A DNA stretch of 64,000 nt from an uncultured Chloroflexia bacterium (GCA_963827965.1 CAWHCW010000019.1:4559-68558); one strand, 5' to 3'. Counted from the first letter of the stretch, positions 2,587 through 22,512 are shown. Notes: generated by a model not told the origin, from the sequence alone. Numbers and translations: made by a program.

Positions 2587-2616
2587 GAGGCTCCTCTGGG
2601 GCGCGATGAGGTGAAG

Positions 2617-2883
2617 TGCCGTGCACCCACCGTCGATCGGCACGTCCCCGCGCCCTCCGGGATGGACGACTCAGACCAGGCCGTGCCGCGGCACCCGGCG
2701 AACCTCGCTTAGCGCTGCTTCCTTCCGGACCTGACGCGGTTCGCGTGTCGCCGCTGCGCGGGACCCGGTCCTCGGCGCCGTCCAGGCCGGCAGCATTCGA
2801 AGACGGTGACCTCGGGTGGGAATTCAGCCCTGCTGGAGCGGATTGCAGGTACAGGGCACCGCTAGTTCCCCGCCTAGCACGGC
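2617..2883 (-). ncRNA. ffs: Signal recognition particle RNA, large (Alu-domain, Bacillus scRNA-type)
   Basis: Minus strand begins GCCGTGCTAGGCGGGGAACTAGCGGTGCCCTGTACCTGCAATCCGCT, contains helix-8 TCAGGTCCGGAAGGAAGCAGC and ends GTGCACGGC, pairing with the 5' end. Upstream TGcTATCAT extended -10. Confidence 0.95.
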
Positions 2884-2914
2884 AGGGAGATGATAGCAGG
2901 GGTCCCCTTGAAGG

Positions 2915-3002
2915 TGGCGGAGAGGGAGGGATTCGAACCCTCGATGGGTTGCCCCATACCGCATTTCCAGTGCGGCGCCCTAGGCCTCTAGGCGACCTCT
3001 CC
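2915..3002 (-). tRNA. tRNA-Ser(GGA)
   Basis: Anticodon arm CCGCA-CTGGAAA-TGCGG, long variable arm, GTTCGAATC T-loop, encoded CCA. Confidence 0.96.
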
Positions 3003-3062
3003 GCGGGCGATGCGCCGCGGCCCGGCCGGTGCGCGACCTGGACCGTCGGGTCGGGATGGGAG

Positions 3063-3148
<86 letters not shown>

Positions 3149-3312
3149 GCCGCGGAGGATAGCAAAGCAGCGCGGACGGCGGCGGGGAGGCCCCCCGGCG
3201 GGGAGGCGCGCGGCGAGGCGCGCGGCGGGCGACGGCTACGGCGGCGAAGGCGCGCGACGCCGAAGGCGCGGCGGCGATGGCGCGCCCAGCCCGGACTGTA
3301 CGATGCACCGCC

Positions 3313-4089
3313 ATGGACTCGCCGCCACCCGAGAGCAGCCCGCCCGCGCCCGTGCCCCCGGTGGAGCTCGAGCCGGCACCGGTCGCACCGGCCGCACCGG
3401 CCGCACCGTCCCGCCGGATCTCCGACACGACGTTCACGACGTTTGTCGCGGTGGTCGTCACCGTCGTGTCCGTCCTCATCGCGGTGGGCGCCTGGCGCAC
3501 CACGGACGCCGCGAACCGGGCCTCCGATCTCGACAGCCTGGTCATCCAGCAGCTGGCCCGCCGGCAACAGGAGATGGAGGACCTCAACGGGCAGGTCGAC
3601 CTCGACCTGCGCCTGCTGGCCCGCTACCAGGCCTACACCCTTGCCGCAGCCACGCTCGACAAGGCAGCGACCGCAGCCGGCGAGCCGGGCACGATCGACC
3701 GCCAGATCCTCGAGGTGGAGGCGCAGGGCCAGCGCGCCCTCGCCCGCGTGCTGCACCAGTTCTTCCGGGGCGCCCTCCCGGCGGTCGACGCCGAGGGCGT
3801 CGCCGAGTACGACCCCGAGAGGGTGCTCCGCAACCTCGTCGCCGGGTCGACCCGGCTCGCGGACCTGCGGCCGGAGGTGACCCAGGGACGCGCCGACCTG
3901 GCCCACCGGCAGACGGCCGCGTTCGTCCTCCTCGTCATCCTCTTCGCGGCCTGCCTGGTCATGCTGACCCTGGCGCAGGTGGTGCACGGCCGGTCCAGGG
4001 TCCCGCTCGCGGCGGCCGGCACGCTCGTCGCGCTCGGCGGGCTGGTGCTCCTGGTCCTGGTCGAAGCCGCCCTGTTCACGGGCGCCTGA
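3313..4089 (+). CDS. Hypothetical membrane protein (TM, helical loop, two TMs; DUF4337-like layout)
   Basis: ATG at 3313 within ORF 3277..4089; hydrophobic segments at both ends. Confidence 0.7.
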   Translation: MDSPPPESSPPAPVPPVELEPAPVAPAAPAAPSRRISDTTFTTFVAVVVTVVSVLIAVGAWRTTDAANRASDLDSLVIQQLARRQQEMEDLNGQVDLDLRLLARYQAYTLAAATLDKAATAAGEPGTIDRQILEVEAQGQRALARVLHQFFRGALPAVDAEGVAEYDPERVLRNLVAGSTRLADLRPEVTQGRADLAHRQTAAFVLLVILFAACLVMLTLAQVVHGRSRVPLAAAGTLVALGGLVLLVLVEAALFTGA

Positions 4090-4091
4090 CC

Positions 4092-6260
4092 ATGTCGCTG
4101 CCCGAGTTCGACCTGCCCTCCTCCGACGAGCTGGTCAATTCGTTCGCGCGACGGATCGCCGTGGCCATCGCGGTGGCGACGTTCCTGGCCGCCATCGTCG
4201 GGTTCCTGCAGCACCAGGCCTCGGCCGAGAACGGGGCCGCCTCGCTGCGCGCCCAGCGGTACGCGATCGAGGCGACCGGGGCCCTGGTCCTGACCCAGGA
4301 GCGCGCGCGGGTCGGCGTCGACGCCTGGGCGACATCGCTGGAGCAGCGCGTCCAGGCTGCCAACCTCTCCCAGGAGCTCCTGTACGCCCCGGAATCCGAG
4401 ACGGCGCGCCTCGAGGCACGGCGCCAGCAGTGGATCAGCCTGGCCGACCGCACCGAGCAGCTCAGCGGGATCACCCGCGATTCGCCCGATGGCCCGGACC
4501 TGGATCCGACGTTTCCGTCGCGGCTCCTCGTCAGCAGCAGTCGCGAGGCGATCCGGCTGGAAGCCCTCCAGGACGCCGCCAACGAGGTCGGTGGGCTCTG
4601 GTCGAACCAGGCGACGGTCTACACGGCTGTGCTCGCGATTCTCGCGGTCGCCCTCTACCTCCTCGGGTTCTCGCTGACGATCGGCGTTCGCCGAGCCAAG
4701 CGCCTCTTCGCGGTCTCGGGCGTGGTCCTCATCGTCGTCGCCGGCGCCTGGACGGGGACGCAGGTCGCGGCCCGCCCGCACGCGCCGGCGGACGATGCGG
4801 CCGACGCGTACGCGGAGGGGATGGTCGCCCTCGGGACCGCCTTCGACCGGTCCGGCCTGGAGGCCGCCGAGCGCGAGCTGACGCGCGCGATCGAGCTGCG
4901 CCCGACGTTCGCGCGAGCGTACGTGGCTCGCTCCAACGCGCGCTTCCGGCTGGGGTCGCCCCAGCAGGAGGGATTCCTGAGCGTGATCTCCGACGAGGCG
5001 CTGGCGGCGAGCTCCGACGATCTTGCCCGCGCGTATGGGCTGGGGCTCGACGACACCGCGCTCATCGCCGACCTGGGCTTCCAGCGCTTCCTGCAGGGCA
5101 TCCGCGACGACAGCGAGGCGAATCTTCGCGAGAGCATCGACTTCTCCACCCGGGCGATCGCCCGGCAGGACGACAATCCGGTCCCGCGCTTCAACCTGGG
5201 CGTCGCGCTGCTGGCCGCCGGCCGGATCGACGACGCGCGCGCCGCCTACGCCGACGGGATCGCCCGGACCATCTACGTCGACGTGGGGGCGCGGACGCTT
5301 CGCGAGGAGCCGTACACCGAGATGACGTACGTGGCGGGGGCCCTGACGGACCTGGGCATCCTCGCCGGCAGGCGGACCGATCTGCGGGCCGTGGTGGAGG
5401 ACCTGCGCTCCACGATCGTGGGCTCGGTGGCCCGGGGAGCCGCTGGCGCCGCGGGGACGACGGGCGGATCGGCCACCGTGGGCCGCCTGGCGGCGGACGT
5501 CTTCCCGTCCCTGGTCCAGTGGCGCGGCGACGTTGCCGGCCTCGACGACGCGACGGACACGCTGTCCGTCGTCTGGTCGCGGAAGGACCCGGGCGGAACC
5601 GACTGGGCCGTGCTCCCGGAAGTCTCCTCGCTGGATGTCGCGCCGACGGAGAACGTCGACCCGTCCGTCGGGACGCACTTCGGGCTGGCCCGCTACATCG
5701 GCACCACCGTTCCACCGCGCTGCCTCCCCGATGGCACCTACCGGGTCGAGCTCTTCGTGGACGGCCGGCCGGTGGGCACTGCCGAGGCGACGGCGAGCTC
5801 CGGCTCGTTCGAGGCGTTCGCGGCCCGCGACCTCGGGGCGGCGCTCTGCCGACCGGCCGACTGGACGCCCGACCCGGGGCGCGAGCTGGGAACGGCGGCG
5901 GGCTACGTGGGGCCGGCGGGCGACCGGGGGGTGGGGCTCGTCCACCTCCAGGCTCCCACCCTGCCGATCGACGAGGGCGAGATGATCGTCCTGATGATCG
6001 ACGCGGCGATCGATGGGCTGAAGCCGTCGCTTCCCTCCGCCGCGACATACGACGAGGCGTCGGGGACCGACGAGAGCTACTTCATGGGTCTCTCCGCGAG
6101 GCGCTGGCGCTGGTACGACTACGAGGGCGGCTACGTCCGGATCGGGGCCGGCCTCGACCCCGACGGCGGCATCTACATCGGCTTCGCGTACGGACCCGTC
6201 GCCTGGTTCGACGGCGCGGAGTGGAAGCGCATCGTGGAGTCGTTCGAGACGTTCAACTGA
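4092..6260 (+). CDS. Membrane protein with a DUF4337-like N-terminus, TPR repeats and a C-terminal soluble region
   Basis: ATG 2 nt after the previous stop. Three TM segments, then TPR-like AERELTRAIELRPTFARAYVARSNARFRLG and PRFNLGVALLAAGRIDDARAAYADGI. Confidence 0.75.
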   Translation: MSLPEFDLPSSDELVNSFARRIAVAIAVATFLAAIVGFLQHQASAENGAASLRAQRYAIEATGALVLTQERARVGVDAWATSLEQRVQAANLSQELLYAPESETARLEARRQQWISLADRTEQLSGITRDSPDGPDLDPTFPSRLLVSSSREAIRLEALQDAANEVGGLWSNQATVYTAVLAILAVALYLLGFSLTIGVRRAKRLFAVSGVVLIVVAGAWTGTQVAARPHAPADDAADAYAEGMVALGTAFDRSGLEAAERELTRAIELRPTFARAYVARSNARFRLGSPQQEGFLSVISDEALAASSDDLARAYGLGLDDTALIADLGFQRFLQGIRDDSEANLRESIDFSTRAIARQDDNPVPRFNLGVALLAAGRIDDARAAYADGIARTIYVDVGARTLREEPYTEMTYVAGALTDLGILAGRRTDLRAVVEDLRSTIVGSVARGAAGAAGTTGGSATVGRLAADVFPSLVQWRGDVAGLDDATDTLSVVWSRKDPGGTDWAVLPEVSSLDVAPTENVDPSVGTHFGLARYIGTTVPPRCLPDGTYRVELFVDGRPVGTAEATASSGSFEAFAARDLGAALCRPADWTPDPGRELGTAAGYVGPAGDRGVGLVHLQAPTLPIDEGEMIVLMIDAAIDGLKPSLPSAATYDEASGTDESYFMGLSARRWRWYDYEGGYVRIGAGLDPDGGIYIGFAYGPVAWFDGAEWKRIVESFETFN

Positions 6261-6285
6261 CGGCCGCCGGCCCGAGGGGCGGAGG

Positions 6286-6368
6286 CGTGGACGCGGCCGA
6301 CGAGAACCGGGGGCGCGGGCGCGGCCGGCGAGAGCCGGGGCGTGGACGCGGCCGGCGAGAGCCGGGGC
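6286..6368. repeat. About three imperfect 27-28 bp tandem repeats (CGTGGACGCGGCCGGCGAGAGCCGGGG) between convergent genes
   Basis: Units read directly from the sequence: cgtggacgcggccgacgagaaccggggg / cgcgggcgcggccggcgagagccgggg / cgtggacgcggccggcgagagccgggg. Confidence 0.6.
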
Positions 6369-6409
6369 GAGGAGGCGGCGCGGGCGGCCGCGGCAGTTCG
6401 GCGGGCGCG

Positions 6410-6856
6410 TCAGGCCGGGCGAGCGGCCGCCAGGTCGAGGAGCTCGGCGGCGTCGGAGCGGAGGATCCCGCTGATGAGGTCGACCCGGCGCGGGAGAGCA
6501 GGATTGTTCGCCAGCTGGACCACGGATCCGGCCGCTCCCGAGACGGGGTCCGGCAGGGCGTAGACCAGGCAGTCCGCGTCGGCCTCGAGCAGCGCCCCGA
6601 CACACATCGCGCACGGCTCCACCGTGGAGAAGACGGTGACCCCCGCGAGCGAGGTGGTGCCCAGGCGCTTGGCCGCTTCGCGCAGCGTGACCACCACGGC
6701 GTGCGCCGTCGGGTCGTTGAGCGACGCGACCTCCTCGTGACCGCTCGCGACCAGCGCCTCGCCGAGGACCGCCGCCGCGCCGTGGGGGCGCTCGCCCCGC
6801 TCCAGCGCGGCACGGGCCTCCCCGATGGCGGCGCCCATGAACAGCTCGTAGTGCAT
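6410..6856 (-). CDS. tadA: TadA-like nucleoside deaminase with the catalytic Glu replaced (HAE to HAV)
   Basis: DPTAHAVVVTLR, TVEPCAMCVGAL and DPVSGAAGS; lies upstream of tRNA-Ser/ffs/dnaX, the usual tadA neighbourhood in Firmicutes. Confidence 0.8.
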   Translation of the reverse strand: MHYELFMGAAIGEARAALERGERPHGAAAVLGEALVASGHEEVASLNDPTAHAVVVTLREAAKRLGTTSLAGVTVFSTVEPCAMCVGALLEADADCLVYALPDPVSGAAGSVVQLANNPALPRRVDLISGILRSDAAELLDLAAARPA

Positions 6857-6895
6857 GCGTTGATGGTACCGCCGCGGCCAAGGCGCGGGCGGCGC

Positions 6896-7780
6896 CTATC
6901 CCTCCAGGCCCGAGAGCGACCGGATCGCCCGCGCCAGGGCCGACATGTCGTCGTCGGCGTGGCCGCCCGCGACGAGACCCGCCTCGAGCTGCGCCGCCAG
7001 CGCGGCCACGGGGAGGACGGAACCCGTCTCGCGGGCCATCGCCAGGGCGATCCCCAGGTCCTTGAGGTGGAGCGCCACCCGGAACCCGAGCGGGTAGTCG
7101 TTGGCGAGCATGCGGCCGCTCCGGTTCGCCAGGACCCAGCTCTGCGCGGCGCCGGTCGAGAGGGCCGTCACGACCTGCGCGGGGTCGAGGCCCGCCTTGA
7201 TGGCCAGCACGAGGCCCTCGGCCACGCTCGAGGTACGTCCCGGCCAGGATCACCTGGTTGACGGCCTTGGCGGCCTGGCCGGCACCCACCGGGCCGAAGT
7301 GGGTGATCGTCGCCCCGATCGCCGCGAGGACGGGGCGGGCGCGCTCGACGTCGGCCGGCTCGCCGCCGACCAGGATCGCCAGCGTCGCGTTGCGCGCCCC
7401 CTCGCTGCCGCCGGTCACCGGCGCATCGACGAAGCCGATTCGCTGCTCGGCGAGGCGCGCCGCGAAGCCGCGGCTGGCCGCCGGGTCGATCGTGGAGCAG
7501 TCGATGACCAGCGTCCCGGCCGCTGGCGCCCGCGGCCACGCCGTCGGCGGCGAAGAGGACGGCCTCGACGTCGGGCGTGTCGGAGACGCAGACCAGGACG
7601 ACGTCGACGCTCGGCGGCCAGCGCCGCCGGGCTGGCGGCGAGCGCGACGCCCAGCTCGTCCAGCTCCCGCGTCCGCCCGGCCGTCCGATTCCAGGCCGTC
7701 AGCGGGAAGCCGGCCCGGGCGAGGTTGGCGGCCATCGCGCCGCCCATGGTGCCGAGCCCGACGACGCCGATCCGCTCCAT
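6896..7780 (-). CDS. NAD(P)-dependent oxidoreductase, 3-hydroxyisobutyrate dehydrogenase/GlxR family (frameshifted)
   Basis: IGVVGLGTMGGAMAANL, IDCSTI, DAPVTGG, GQAAKAVNQ and FRVALHLKDL, spread over several frames. Confidence 0.88.
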
Positions 7781-7936
7781 CGTCCTCACTCCTTCGCAGC
7801 GACCGCCGCATCGTAGGCGTCGCCGGCGGCGGTCGTCGCGTCGCCGCGCGAGCGACGACGTCCGGTAACCGCTCGACGGATCCGGCCCCGGCGTTCTACC
7901 GTGACGCCTTCGCACCAGCCCTCACGGAGGTCGGCG

Positions 7937-8854
7937 ATGAGCCCGCGCGTCCTGGCGTCCCTCGTCTACTGCGGTGCCGCGTTCGGCGGCGCCTTCCTCT
8001 TCATGCGCCTCGCCGCCCCCGAGCTCCCGGCGCTGGTCGTGGCCTTCGGACGGGTGGCCATCGCCGCCCTCGTCCTCCTCCCCTTCGCCGGCCGCGAGCG
8101 GCTCGTCGCGATGCGCGCCCACTGGCGCGACTACGCCGTGGTGGGGTTCTTCATGGCGGCGGCGCCGTTCGCGCTCTTCGCCTACGCGGAACGCTCCCTC
8201 ACGGCCGGCCTCGGATCGATCATCAACGCCACGACGCCGCTGTGGACGGCGATCATCCTCGCGGCCTGGGTCCGCCAGGCGCCGACCCCGCGGCGGGTCG
8301 CGGCGATCGTCGTGGGCTTCGTCGGCGTGGGGGTCATCGTGGGGCTGGAGGGGCTCCAGCTCGCCCCGGACGCGCTGGTCGGCGTCGTCGCCGCGACGGC
8401 GGGCGCGGCGTCCTACGGCGTCGCGCTCACCTACATCGGGCGGCGCATGGAACCGCAGCCGCCCCTCCAGCTGGCCCTTGGACAGCTGATCGCGGCCGCG
8501 ATCATGCTGGCGCCGCTGGCCCTGCTGTCGGCCGGCGAGGTCGTGCCGAGCGCCGAGAGCGTCGTGGCCATGGGGGGCATCGCCCTCTTCTCGACCGCGA
8601 TCGCCTGGCCGATCCTCTTCGGCCTGAACCGCGACGTCGGGCCGATGGCGACGAGCACGGTCACCTTCCTCAACCCGGTCTTCGGCGCCCTCTGGGGAAC
8701 CCTCTTCCTGGCCGAGACGATCTCCCCGACGTTCGTCGTCGGCGCCCTGCTGGTCTTCGCGTCCCTCGCCCTCATCTTCGGGGTGCGCCTCCCGGCGAGG
8801 TTCTCGGGGGCGCCCGCCGAGGCGGTGGCGGTGCCCGTCGACGCGGGCGACTGA
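7937..8854 (+). CDS. DMT/EamA family transporter
   Basis: About 10 hydrophobic segments; GSIINATTPLWT and TVTFLNPVFGALWG. Confidence 0.88.
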   Translation: MSPRVLASLVYCGAAFGGAFLFMRLAAPELPALVVAFGRVAIAALVLLPFAGRERLVAMRAHWRDYAVVGFFMAAAPFALFAYAERSLTAGLGSIINATTPLWTAIILAAWVRQAPTPRRVAAIVVGFVGVGVIVGLEGLQLAPDALVGVVAATAGAASYGVALTYIGRRMEPQPPLQLALGQLIAAAIMLAPLALLSAGEVVPSAESVVAMGGIALFSTAIAWPILFGLNRDVGPMATSTVTFLNPVFGALWGTLFLAETISPTFVVGALLVFASLALIFGVRLPARFSGAPAEAVAVPVDAGD

Positions 8855-8981
8855 CCACCCCGGCCCTCCGCGCCCAAACGGCACTTCCCGGGGGAAGGCC
8901 ACACCCCAGAATGTTCGGGTGGCGGCAGTGCCGCGCGGCCGGCGACGCCGCGCCACCGAAGACGACGAAGAGGAGGCCACG

Positions 8982-9839
8982 GTGCCCGAGCGCAAGAAGG
9001 TCACCCTGCCCGCGCTGTTCGCGAAGGTGGCGGACGGCACGCCGATCACCTGGCTGACCTGCTACGACTACCCGACCGCCCACCTCCAGGAGCAGGCCGG
9101 CATCGACATGATCCTGGTGGGCGACAGCCTGGGCATGACGATGCTCGGCTTCGACAGCACCCTGCCGGTGACGATGGACGACATGATCCGCCACGCGGCG
9201 GCGGTGCGCCGCGGGGCGCCCACGGCCTGGGTCGTCGGCGACATGCCCTACATGAGCTACCAGCCCTCCGTGGAGTCCGCGATCCGCAACGCCGGGCGCT
9301 TCATGGCCGAGGCCGGCTGCGACGCCGTGAAGCTGGAGGGCGGCGCCGAGATGGCCGACCGGATGGCGGGGATCGCGCGGGCCGGCATCCCGGTCATCGG
9401 CCACCTGGGCCTCACGCCGCAGAGCGTCAGCGCCCTGGGCGGCTTCCGCCTGCAGGGCAAGGGCGCCGCCCAGGCGAAGAAGATCGTGGACGACGCGAAG
9501 GCGCTGGAGGAGGCCGGCGCCTTCTGCATCCTGCTCGAGCTGGTCCCCGACCGGGTCTGCCGGCTCATCACCGAACGGGCGGAGCACTGCATCATCATGA
9601 GCCTGGGCTCGGGCCCGGACGCCCACGGCCAGCTGCTCATCTACCACGACGCGTTCGCCCTCTACCCGAAGTTCACCCCCCGGATGGCGAAGGTCTTCGC
9701 CGACGCCGGGGCCGTGATCCGGGAGGGCCTCGCGGCCTACGTCGACCAGGTGACCGGGCGGACCTTCCCCCAGCCGGAGAACTGGTTCGGGATGAAGGAC
9801 GAGGAGTACGCGGAGCTGCTTCGAATGCTCGAGGGCTGA
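8982..9839 (+). CDS. panB: 3-methyl-2-oxobutanoate hydroxymethyltransferase
   Basis: TCYDY, ILVGDSLGM, DMPYMSY, AVKLEGG, GHLGLTPQS; AGGAGG SD before the GTG start. Confidence 0.93.
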   Translation: MPERKKVTLPALFAKVADGTPITWLTCYDYPTAHLQEQAGIDMILVGDSLGMTMLGFDSTLPVTMDDMIRHAAAVRRGAPTAWVVGDMPYMSYQPSVESAIRNAGRFMAEAGCDAVKLEGGAEMADRMAGIARAGIPVIGHLGLTPQSVSALGGFRLQGKGAAQAKKIVDDAKALEEAGAFCILLELVPDRVCRLITERAEHCIIMSLGSGPDAHGQLLIYHDAFALYPKFTPRMAKVFADAGAVIREGLAAYVDQVTGRTFPQPENWFGMKDEEYAELLRMLEG

Positions 9840-10078
9840 CCGCGACCCTGCTCCGGCCGGCCGGGCGAGGACGGTCGCGACGATCATCGGCGGGCGGGCA
9901 ACGACGCGGAGGCAGCAGGGGCGGGCGCCCGGCGCGATCGGGCTCCTGGGATCGGGGGTCCAACGGCACTTCCCGCGCCCGGTCGGCCCCGGGATGCTCG
10001 GCGCAACAAAGCGCCGGATCGCCTCGAGCCGGCACAGCGTCCCGGCGTGTTCCGACCGGCTCACGACAGGAGACGGCA

Positions 10079-11346
10079 GTGACCGCTGACCTCCGCGAGC
10101 GGCTCGCGATCCCGAGCGCCCGCCTGGACGACCTGAACGCCTTCCTCCTCGACCCGGACTCGCGGGTCGTCAACGACGTGCTGGCGGTCATCGCCCGCTA
10201 CGGGACCCCCGAGGAGATCAACGCCAGGGCCCGCCAGGCCGGCGAGCTGCCGGCGCTCCTCGACCGCGTCAAGGCCGCCCACCCCGCCGTACCTCGCCGA
10301 CCTGGAGTGGCTCGCCGGGGAGCGCGACCGGGGCGCCTTCGTCAGCGTGGCCGACTACCGCCGGGGCGTGCTCGGCGCCCAGGCGGACAGGCGCGGCCTT
10401 CCGGGACGACATGGCGGTGACGCTGGAGGTCAGCGCCCTCCAGTACTTCCCCTGGGTGATCGCGGCGGCGCGCAAGGCGATCGCGGAGCGCTCCCTGATG
10501 CCCGCCCGCTGGATCCAGGTCCGGCGGATGAAGGAGCAGGAGGCCGAGGGCGACCTCCCGGCGATCGCCGCGGCCATGCAGATCATCGGCGCCAGCTACG
10601 TGGAGACGCTGGACACCAAGGGCACCGACGGCTCGAACGTCCACCTCGGCGGCCCGGCCACCATCACCGGCTACTTCGGCGGGATCGGCCAGCCCAACGA
10701 CCACCCGCTCCTGTGGCTCGACGAGTTCCTCCACTACTACACCGAGTACGGCGTGCGCCAGGTCCTCAACATCAACCCGGGGACCGTGCTGGCGGGCTAC
10801 CTCCTCCACCGTCTCGGCGTGGACATCGAGTTCAAGATCTCGGTCTTCATGGGCAACGACAACCCGTACGCCGGGATGTGGACGCTCATCGGGGCCAAGC
10901 TCTTCGCCCGCGACGACGGCACGTCGCCGCTGGTCGGCTTCAACTGGGGCAACTCGGCCAACAACGAGACGCTGGAGATCACGGCCGAGATCCGGCGGGC
11001 GCTCGGCTTCGAGGACGTCATCCGCTTCGAGCACCACATCACCGAGACGTTCAAGAGCATCGTCCTCCAGCCGTACGACCGCCGCGACGAGCTCATGGCG
11101 CTGGCCGACCACGTGCCCAACATCTCGGCCAAGCACGAGGGCGGCGACCCGGGCGTGGACGGCGCCCGGCCCCATCCCTCGGACATCCTGGACTACTTCC
11201 GCGAGGAATCCGAGGTCATCGAGAGCGGCGACTGGGACAACCTGCAGCTCAACTTCATGGACAAGCTGGACGCCACGAACCACACGGCGCGGGCCCTGAC
11301 GGAGCACGGCCTGAGCTTCGTGGCGGCGCGCAACCTGCACCGCTGA
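10079..11346 (+). CDS. Soluble enzyme-like hypothetical protein of roughly 420 aa (frameshifts ~10280-10410)
   Basis: ORFs 10079..10420 and 10411..11346 join; strong GC3 codon bias; AGGAG SD. Confidence 0.8.
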
Positions 11347-11379
11347 CGCGGGGCCGAGACGACGCGACCGCGGTCCGGG

Positions 11380-11718
11380 GTGACACCCGAGGACTTCTTC
11401 CGGGACGATGCCTCGGCCTCTCGCTCTTCGAGAAGGTCCTGGCCGTTCTGTCTGACCACGGCCGGGTCGAGGTTCGCACCTCGAAGGGCCAGGTCGCCTT
11501 CCGGCGACGGCGCGGCTCGCGTACCTGTGGCTGCCGGACATGTATCTGGGCGACCGTGCGGCCGGGATCGTCGTCCTGTCGTTCGCGCTCGGCCGTGTGA
11601 GATACCGAGGTTCAAGCAGGTCACCAAGGTCGCGCCGGCACACTGGATGCACCACCTGAGATCCGCGATCCGTCTGCGATCGACGAGCAGGTTGTTGCTG
11701 GCTTCACGAGGCCGCTGA
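11380..11718 (+). pseudogene. DUF5655-like protein broken by several frameshifts (pseudogene or assembly errors)
   Basis: Fragments MTPEDFF / VEVRTSKGQVAFRRRRG / FKQVTKVAPAHWMHHL in different frames. Confidence 0.55.
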
Positions 11719-11796
11719 TCGCGCCGGCTGACCTGCAGCCCGCCAGCCGAGGAGGGCCAGCGACTCGAGCCTGATCGGTCGAAGGCGTACGGGAGA

Positions 11797-11872
11797 TGGC
11801 GCGCCCGGCGGGACTCGAACCCACGACCTCCAGGTCCGCAACCTGACGCTCTATCCACTGAGCTACGGGCGC
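11797..11872 (-). tRNA. tRNA-Arg(GCG)
   Basis: GCGCCCGTAGCTCAGTGGATAGAGCG-TCAGG-TTGCGGA-CCTGG-AGGTCGTGGGTTCGAGTCCCGCCGGGCGCGCCA; anticodon GCG at 11837-11839. Confidence 0.95.
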
Positions 11873-11880
11873 ACGAGAGG

Positions 11881-11972
11881 TGGCGGAGAGGGAGGGATTC
11901 GAACCCTCGAGGCAGGTTACCCCACCTGGCGGTTTAGCAAACCGCTGCACTAGGCCTCTATGCGACCTCTCC
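11881..11972 (-). tRNA. tRNA-Ser(GCT)
   Basis: Anticodon arm GCGGT-TTGCTAA-ACCGC, long variable arm, encoded CCA; upstream TGgTAGAAT. Confidence 0.96.
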
Positions 11973-22143: not shown

Positions 22144-22512
22144 CGGGACGCTCCTTCCTGGGGGCACGCTTGCCCCGCCGGAAGGGTCGGTCTCGCCATT
22201 GGCCCAGTGCGTCGGTTTGGCGACCGTGTTGGGACGCCGCGCTGGTGGAACCCCACGGCTCCGTGCCCCCCTGCCGTCGCGGGAGTGTGCACCATCTGCG
22301 GCCGAATGGATAGAAGGAAGTCACCCGCACCGCCGATCGCGCGAGGGGCCACCCGACCTGACACGGCGTTCGCGGAGGGCACCCGGGCCGGGCGTTACCG
22401 CCTTTCCGCCACCTCCCGCAGGCCGGCGGCGGCTCGGCGCGGTCGCGGCGGTCACCGTCGACGAAGTGCGCATGAGCGCGGCCGCAAGCTCCGGAGCCGA
22501 ACCGGTGGTCTC

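Follow-up and report, generated by a model that had tools for sequence, protein, structure and literature searches.

Introduction

Bacterial TadA deaminates adenosine 34 (A34) of tRNA, and its catalytic Glu is necessary for this deamination, as the reported E59A result for TadA illustrates. Here we examined a TadA-derived open reading frame (ORF) of 148 amino acids (aa) in which this Glu is replaced by Val, together with a nearby tRNA-Arg(GCG) gene, in DNA of an uncultured Chloroflexia bacterium (GCA_963827965.1 CAWHCW010000019.1:4559-68558; the whole 64,000-nucleotide stretch is called the window below). The gene is likely, if not securely, a vertically inherited tadA that was kept as a conserved pseudo-enzyme with a new role after its clade gave up inosine 34. 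The window protein has the same fold as TadA of E. coli (1Z3A), S. aureus (TadA-RNA complex, 2B3J), and B. subtilis (7CPH), at 31-39% identity in gapless alignment. It has in common with them the zinc ligands, the DPTAHA and EPCxMC motifs, and the chromosomal position between tRNA genes. It differs in carrying Val, Ile, or Leu (V/I/L across its clade) for the catalytic Glu and Asp or Glu for the pocket Asn, in the loss of FFxxxR, K110, and N127-H128, in its acidic charge, and in its score below the TadA family cut-off. Also unlike the situation of bacterial TadA, there is no A34 substrate tRNA in the tRNA sets of its genome and of a more complete relative.

ADAT3/Tad3, the inactive subunit of ADAT2/ADAT3, is likewise a TadA descendant that has exchanged Glu for Val (Val218 in ADAT3) and kept the zinc site (PMC7713142). 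Its C-terminal helix is shortened and incapable of binding the anticodon stem-loop, and the surface over its zinc pocket is negative (PMC8216470). However, ADAT3 has an active ADAT2 partner and a large N-terminal tRNA-binding domain, whereas the window protein is a single 148-aa domain with no N-terminal extension, its start codon coming directly after a -10 box. Unlike ADAT3, it has no ADAT2- or TadA-like active partner that could be found in 5/5 genomes of its genus and no A34 tRNAs to edit, and a 111-sequence tree points to an independent, bacterial origin.

Exit from inosine decoding is already known in other bacteria. In Mollicutes, tadA was lost and ACG gave way to GCG and UCG (Yokobori et al., 2013, PMC3711424), and tRNA-Arg(GCG) instead of ACG was reported for Thermotogae and Spirochaetes (PMC8007984) and for candidate phyla radiation (CPR) bacteria (PMC8629427). 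TadA has been lost repeatedly across bacteria (PMC6063277). In contrast to the tadA loss reported for Mollicutes, the orthologue described here has been conserved as a protein at the family level, and its host is free-living, with ∼74% G+C and a genome that is not reduced. The guanine deaminase GuaD (B. subtilis 1WKQ), of cytidine-deaminase (CDA) fold, belongs to the same superfamily and has a true HAE member elsewhere in these genomes, whereas the window protein has HAV and is closer to TadA. What appears to be new is the conserved dead TadA: our literature search, which left many subscription papers outside its reach, turned up neither a conserved bacterial TadA without the Glu nor a tRNA-Arg(GCG) described from Chloroflexota.

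Results

The TadA-derived ORF lies at 6410-6856 on the minus strand, from ATG (6854-6856) to TGA (6410-6412). Read from the DNA, codon 54, at the position of E. coli E59, is GTG (Val; 6695-6697). It is preceded by Ala53 (GCC; 6698-6700) and by the zinc ligand His52 (CAC; 6701-6703), the H of HAV. The two Cys zinc ligands are in Cys82-Ala-Met-Cys85 (PCAMC; 6602-6613), with Cys82 encoded by TGC (6611-6613) and Cys85 by TGT (6602-6604). An earlier note on this DNA had described kept zinc ligands and HAV in place of HAE, with GTG as the codon, and the direct reading gave the same. Two more replacements were located on the same strand: Glu41 (GAG; 6734-6736) stands in place of the substrate-pocket Asn (E. 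coli N46) when the protein is aligned with TadA of E. coli and B. subtilis, and Arg23 (CGC; 6788-6790) was found in the clade comparison where the GEVP motif has its invariant Val.

The best NCBIfam match of the 148-aa protein is TadA (NF008113) at 97.6 bits, which is under the 150-bit equivalog cut-off. Its orthologues in the genus score 98-108 bits against this model and true Chloroflexota TadAs 158-194 bits. The Pfam matches are MafB19-deam and dCMP_cyt_deam_1. In a sequence search of the Protein Data Bank (PDB) the top matches were all TadA, gapless over 135-138 residues (E ∼1e-22); the match to the GuaD structure was far weaker (E 1.6e-14), and ADAT3 chains were matched at E 1.3e-10. An AlphaFold2 (AF2) model of the protein (pLDDT 87.4, pTM 0.86) had as its best Foldseek matches the TadA structures 7CPH, 1WWR, and 2B3J (TM 0.89-0.93, rmsd 1.5-1.7 Å). 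Membership of a non-TadA deaminase family had been raised as a possibility that would undo the assignment; sequence, predicted fold, and the ancestral tadA position all group the protein with TadA instead. The cluster of the window protein is annotated as 'tRNA(adenine34) deaminase' in IMG and as 'nucleoside deaminase' at NCBI.

Orthologues were present in 24/24 genomes of the genus that were searched (73-93% identity), and all 24 have HAV, HAI, or HAL. For a wider comparison of loci we took one genome per species, giving 55 V/I/L loci and 25 outgroup Glu loci from Acidobacteriota, Bacillota, Methylomirabilia, and others. The Glu site is V/I/L in 80/80 clade orthologues vs. E in 25/25 outgroup TadAs. 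The HAV and HAE loci have a common gene order, namely tRNA-Ser(GCT), tRNA-Arg, a few kb, tadA, tRNA-Ser(CGA), and tRNA-Ser(GGA). Wherever the flanking tRNA-Arg is present, it is GCG beside the HAV genes (55 loci) and ACG beside the HAE genes (25 loci). The HAE TadAs of Chloroflexota likewise have tRNA-Ser(CGA) next downstream. In a tree of 111 sequences from a quick maximum-likelihood search (IQ-TREE), the Glu-less group is set apart from the rest by a single branch with SH-aLRT 99, and its stem is long (0.59 + 0.26), a pattern that fits a single origin of the Glu-less proteins followed by slower change. Because of the tRNA-flanked synteny with HAE loci and the placement within TadA in the tree, the window gene is identified as a vertically inherited tadA at its ancestral locus.

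A profile search of 1.84 billion representatives returned 42 HAV proteins among the best 150 matches. The same search picked up three singleton Glu-less TadA-like metagenome proteins outside the main clade (P0043, P0054, and P0146): one has HAV and keeps GEVPVGAV, one has HPI, and one has HAA and has lost the first Cys. With these singletons in view, remodelling of a Glu-less TadA may have happened more than once.

The earlier note had asked for the reads behind 6695-6697 and for orthologues from relatives. Contigs from two other metagenome studies (X1 and X2) carry GTC at codon 54, which is still Val, and their adjacent changes are synonymous or conservative; GAG was seen at this codon in none of the other-study contigs. 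An assembly or sequencing error at Val54 was ruled out by these independent contigs and by the V/I/L residues of all 80 orthologues. The loss of Glu is thus conserved in the genus and the clade, and substitution rates indicate purifying selection on the gene, with dN/dS of ∼0.1 for close pairs. In the 12 closest pairs listed, dN/dS by the Nei-Gojobori method (NG86) was 0.02-0.35, most values being 0.08-0.19, at dS of 0.13-0.34. Over 2748 HAV pairs with dS < 1.5 the median was 0.31, compared with 0.32 for true TadA pairs at equal saturation. Among 34 diverse clade members M1, Y3, E4, M7, F76, the DPTAHA, EPCxMC, and GAAG motifs, and others are invariant, and His52, Cys82, and Cys85 are invariant in both the HAV and the HAE clades.

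These data bear on the suggestion that the gene is a functionless, decaying relic, inactivated once its substrate had vanished, or that its Val is an assembly error. The absence of the gene from family f2 and from ten GCG genomes of ten other Chloroflexota families, described below, would suit a relic. All 80 orthologues, however, are intact over a span of 52-94% identity, the close pairs have the low dN/dS just given, clade-specific residues are invariant, a promoter element is conserved, and the independent contigs read Val. We therefore consider a relic or an error very improbable.

The tRNA-Arg gene is at 11797-11872 on the minus strand, with its anticodon at 11837-11839. ARAGORN, Rfam (tRNA, 68.7 bits), and direct reading of the loop (U32 U33 G34 C35 G36 G37 A38) agree on GCG, not ACG, as the earlier note had read it, and the orthologous tRNA-Arg genes of the genus are GCG in 30/30 cases. 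In the loop, C32 has changed to U32 and the 31-39 pair to G-C. A tRNA-Ser(GCT) gene, the conserved partner just upstream, was called by ARAGORN at 11881-11972 (minus strand).

The window's own genome (G000) is metagenome-assembled (3.0 Mb, 19 contigs, 73-74% G+C, 60% complete), and the tRNA repertoire was therefore also read in a relative, G001 (91% complete, 2 contigs). All 46 tRNAs found by Rfam in G001 were read one by one: the Arg anticodons are GCG, TCG, CCG, CCT, and TCT, and there is no ACG and no A34 anticodon among the 46. The 56 ARAGORN calls in G000 likewise include no anticodon starting with A. A repertoire of GCG and TCG without ACG had been predicted from the window, and it holds in G001. 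A sequence pattern for the ACG form matched 0/15 f1, 0/2 f2, and 0/15 f3 genomes, where f1 to f3 are families of the class. The Arg codons of 569 confidently coding ORFs in G000 are CGC (50%), CGG (38%), CGA (4.8%), CGT (3.9%), AGG (2.9%), and AGA (0.3%). Since CGC makes up 50% of Arg codons, the commonest Arg codon is the one read by the G34 tRNA through Watson-Crick pairing.

Some ARAGORN 'tRNA-Arg' calls in G000 are unusually long: the CCG call is 89 nt (C4:66956-67044) and a second GCG call is 96 nt (C6:59415-59510). The CCG tRNA is 77 nt in relatives, and the long calls may be false or interrupted genes.

Observations on Ile decoding were made in the same tRNA sets. A tRNA-Ile(TAT) gene is present in the lineage (contig C2:136548-136623 in G000, and in G001), only two CAT tRNAs occur in G001, and ATA accounts for 13 of 9656 Ile codons in the coding ORFs of G000. 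The N-terminal family of TilS (TIGR02432) was matched in 0/5 genus genomes (91-95% complete), and the control was positive in 14/14. TilS is reported in 98% of bacteria (PMC6063277). Because tRNA-Ile(TAT) is present, only two CAT tRNAs were seen, TIGR02432 has no match, and ATA is rare, lysidine decoding seems to have been given up in the lineage as well.

A second, HAE-type TadA, for which the earlier note had asked, was looked for. The only other TadA-like match in G000 and its genus is an HAE paralogue with 35-41% identity. It was rejected as a real TadA because of its match to guanine deaminase 1WKQ (E 6e-51), which covers residues 17-159, almost the full length. A TadA scoring above the NCBIfam cut-off was present in 0/5 near-complete genus genomes (91-95% complete); besides the HAV orthologue, at 98-108 bits, these five genomes gave matches to the guanine deaminase, at 74-85 bits, and to a third deaminase that scored lower. 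In G000 the gene of the guanine deaminase paralogue (contig C16, L002:1371-1990) shifts frame after ∼40 codons, and the copies in relatives are intact; either the assembly is wrong here or the gene has recently become a pseudogene.

The spread of the gene in the class was surveyed in 81 genomes at least 85% complete, with matches to the HAV protein taken at E ≤ 1e-25. Matches were found in 20/23 genomes of f1, 26/26 of f3, 0/4 of f2, 5/26 of f69, and 1/1 of f70, and those in f69 and f70 are ordinary HAE TadAs. In genus g175 of f69, HAE occurs together with tRNA-Arg(ACG) in 4/4 genomes. A genome of another f69 genus (G355) has tRNA-Arg GCG and TCG and no match to the HAV protein. The f2 genomes of the survey are 1.0-1.4 Mb, and the tRNA-Arg set of f2 is GCG, TCG, CCG, and CCT. 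Within the class the two genes thus vary together: HAV with GCG in f1 and f3, HAE with ACG in g175, and no TadA with GCG in f2 and G355.

Across the phylum, a pattern search found the GCG form in at least 89/301 genomes of many families, with 0 matches for its reversed control pattern, and the ACG form in at least 7/301. Since the acceptor and D-arm are set to one sequence in the search pattern, ∼205/301 genomes matched neither form, and the counts are lower bounds and not frequencies. The 89 genomes include the unpublished G200, on which no claim depends. In 10 GCG genomes from 10 families outside the class there was no TadA above the cut-off, the best deaminase matches being RibD or another family. 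Of five ACG-type genomes, four have an HAE TadA at 158-194 bits and the fifth has no match. Loss of inosine decoding is common in Chloroflexota and usually ended in loss of tadA, and f1 and f3, the two families that make up the clade, kept an altered tadA. The tRNA and TadA counts also indicate that the exit of f1 and f3 from inosine decoding is real and clade-wide. The exit that the earlier note proposed for the lineage is therefore upheld in substance; it is not specific to one genome, being fixed in f1 and f3, with loss of ACG and TadA widespread in the phylum.

We compared the 80 Glu-less proteins with the 25 true TadAs at positions conserved in at least 88% of true TadAs (most of them invariant) and changed in the Glu-less clade; the E. 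coli number is the window residue number plus 5. In E. coli numbering, E59 has become V/I/L (100%), N46 D/E (94%), and V28 R (81%). Further changes are Y81 to F, A91 to V, R98 to D, G105 to A, and H128 to R; K110 and N127 are variable, and F148, F149, and R152 of the C-terminal helix (FFxxxR) are lost. The mean net charge is -5.9 for the 80 HAV proteins vs. -0.4 for the 25 HAE proteins, so that the former are ∼5.5 charges more acidic. In the window numbering, position 41 is N in 96% of the 25 HAE TadAs and D/E in 70/75 unique HAV-clade sequences; a subclade (5/75) has N, H, or G there. Position 23 is V in 25/25 HAE proteins and R in 60/75 unique HAV-clade sequences. All 60 sequences with R23 have D/E41, and the five without the acid are also without R23. 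Because of this co-variation we infer that Arg23 and the acid at 41 form a salt bridge across the former pocket, which would have arisen after the loss of Glu. The least confident blocks of the AF2 model, 41-50 and 101-120, are the two loops of this proposed pair.

N46, K110, and N127/H128 are reportedly among the residues that hold the anticodon loop in the TadA-RNA structure. The C-terminal helix of TadA was reported to bind the anticodon stem-loop, and Arg149 of S. aureus TadA to read G36 (PMC8216470, PMC7713142). The anticodon-loop-holding residues (the pocket Asn, Lys110, Asn127-His128, and FFxxxR) are all replaced or lost in the clade. This bears on a non-catalytic reader of the tRNA-Arg(GCG) anticodon loop, which would bind, chaperone, or mark this tRNA; the carboxylate of Asp/Glu41 would accept the N2 amino group of a flipped-out G34, replacing the contact to adenine N3. 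Such a reader could explain the change of N46 to D/E in 70/75 unique sequences, the proximity of the gene, within a few kb, to tRNA-Arg(GCG) in many loci, and the new conserved arginines R23, R123, and R133, and the loop change (C32 to U32, 31-39 to G-C) could reflect co-evolution. However, the closeness to the tRNA gene is a matter of inherited gene order, found at true TadA loci as well, the acid is missing in 5/75 unique sequences, and f2 keeps tRNA-Arg(GCG) without the protein. Together with the loss of the FFxxxR helix, K110, and N127/H128 and a net charge lower by ∼5.5 units, this makes a tRNA reader unlikely in our judgment. For the same reasons, with the basic helix and other invariant TadA residues gone and the protein more acidic, the non-catalytic RNA-binding role suggested in the earlier note is not favoured.

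The acid at position 41 could also have taken over catalysis. The protein would then still be an enzyme, with its zinc water activated by another base such as Asp/Glu41, as in JAB-type proteins of deaminase-like fold. Its substrate would be new, be it a different position in RNA or a free base or nucleoside, or it would carry out a hydrolysis other than deamination. Consistent with this are the invariant zinc ligands and three invariant pocket motifs, the acid 11 residues before His52 in 70/75 unique sequences, and purifying selection equal to that on true TadA. But the subclade that lacks the acid (5/75) leaves no universal catalytic residue, and acid 41 co-varies with Arg23, more like a salt bridge. 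In TadA the base lies between the zinc water and the substrate-pocket Asn that this acid replaces. Val, Ile, and Leu at position 54 also swap freely, as expected of mere hydrophobic filler. A relocated base is accordingly given a low probability here.

Upstream of the start codon, a -10-like hexamer TACCAT is located at 6863-6868 (minus strand), 6 nt before the ATG and without a Shine-Dalgarno sequence, a probable promoter for a leaderless mRNA. In the upstream regions of the clade, aligned by eye, a TAnnAT hexamer, often with TG before it, stands 6-7 nt ahead of ATG or GTG in 21/21 printed loci. The DNA around the hexamer is otherwise unconserved and GC-rich and has no Shine-Dalgarno sequence in these 21 loci, and the arrangement of TAnnAT followed by the start codon probably denotes a leaderless mRNA. 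In two (X18 and X19) of three metatranscriptome runs that contain a small part of the window, only short contig pieces of 90-99% likeness fell on the gene; DNA carry-over is possible, and they were not counted as evidence.

A tadA-ffs-dnaX neighbourhood had been noticed in the window and is real. Downstream of the TadA-like gene, all on the minus strand, are the conserved neighbours tRNA-Ser(CGA) (3063-3148) and tRNA-Ser(GGA) (2915-3002), the large bacterial signal recognition particle (SRP) RNA (ffs; 2619-2882; Rfam RF01854, 166.5 bits), and dnaX for DNA polymerase III gamma/tau (940-2643; Pfam DNA_pol3_delta2 at 1e-34, DNAX_ATPase_lid, and DNA_pol3_gamma3). The true dnaX start is probably downstream of 2619. 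The dnaX gene is downstream of the HAV gene in 45/55 related loci. In the window, ∼3 kb of extra DNA (3150-6400) parts the TadA-like gene from tRNA-Ser(CGA), a distance of 70-150 bp in relatives. This DNA holds a long plus-strand ORF (within 2616-6260), for which neither Pfam nor a tblastn search of 80 related loci gave a match.

Upstream, a HIBADH-like dehydrogenase gene is present in 46/55 HAV loci vs. 0/25 HAE loci. It was considered as an operon partner and rejected: in distant HAV loci a phosphofructokinase gene on the opposite strand intervenes between it and the HAV gene, and the arrangement is read as inherited gene order. In the window this dehydrogenase (6896-7915, minus strand) is in two frames (ORFs 6896-7225 and 7415-7915), and it is a single 293-aa ORF in locus L105. 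Contigs of other runs are one base short at 7228-7232, and the split is probably an assembly frameshift. Farther away, a c-di-GMP-II-GAG riboswitch aptamer was matched at 22176-22279 (minus strand) with 41.6 bits vs. a gathering score of 40.

Discussion

In the reading that we prefer, a pseudo-enzyme kept in a new role, CGN codons would be read by three plain tRNAs, GCG for CGC/CGU, UCG for CGA/CGG, and CCG for CGG, leaving inosine unneeded. The tadA gene would first have lost its proton-shuttle Glu to Val, Ile, or Leu. Later, in most lineages, the pocket Asn would have become Asp or Glu and the pocket Val Arg, a pair whose presumed salt bridge would shut the pocket. The basic C-terminal helix and other invariant TadA residues were also lost, and the protein became acidic. 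Inactivity on A34 is expected because the catalytic Glu is known to be needed, and with no proton shuttle and the anticodon-loop surface lost the protein would be neither an A34 deaminase nor, probably, a binder of the anticodon loop. The TadA fold and the zinc ligands are kept, as is a putative leaderless-type promoter of its own, and purifying selection acts on the gene. That selection has maintained the protein, and with it the zinc site and the promoter, indicates a function, which would be exerted at the protein level. As a best guess, the protein would serve for binding or as a scaffold, stabilised by zinc, a fate like that of ADAT3's pseudo-catalytic domain.

Several observations weigh against this explanation. 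The gene seems dispensable in some relatives: it was not found by protein search in 16/16 f2 genomes or in 3/23 f1 genomes, and no match to the TadA family model was seen in 5/5 f2 genomes that are 91-93% complete. The invariance of the DPTAHA, EPCxMC, and GAAG pocket motifs fits a pocket in use as well as a structural zinc site. A single f3 genome (G372), the sole exception of its kind, has the syntenic HAV gene and, on another contig of 7.6 kb that also carries two tRNA-Ser(CGA) genes, an HAE TadA (loci L206 and L207); this HAE TadA may be contamination or true co-occurrence. The window's genome is only 60% complete, and absences in it rest on relatives. A partner gene or conserved operon was sought among the related loci and none was found. 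As to the candidate -10 element put forward in the earlier note, the equally spaced TAnnAT of the 21/21 printed loci speaks for it; a scan of 6250-7050 for a sigma-70 consensus and a search of the same region for a terminator found neither.

The comparison with ADAT3 can be taken further. An ADAT3-like pseudo-TadA may have evolved independently in bacteria, a tadA freed by the switch from tRNA-Arg(ICG) to GCG being remodelled into a zinc protein with a new function; we hold this as a tentative possibility. The remodelled protein could read G34-type anticodons, sense nucleobases, or act as a scaffold, or it could be an enzyme whose catalytic base has moved.

In bacteria, TadA is regarded as nearly universal and often as essential. 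The A34-deaminase label that IMG gives to the cluster of the window protein would misrepresent how codons are read in these Chloroflexota, which are abundant in soil and sediment. Three states along the exit from inosine decoding are represented within a single class: active TadA with ACG, dead but conserved TadA with GCG, and no TadA with GCG. Taken with the absence of TilS and the presence of a tRNA-Ile(UAU) gene, the loss of inosine suggests a general simplification of wobble decoding in the lineage. If the pseudo-enzyme reading is right, the clade would offer a natural counterpart, in bacteria, to the way ADAT3 arose, and a simple system for asking what the deaminase fold does without catalysis.

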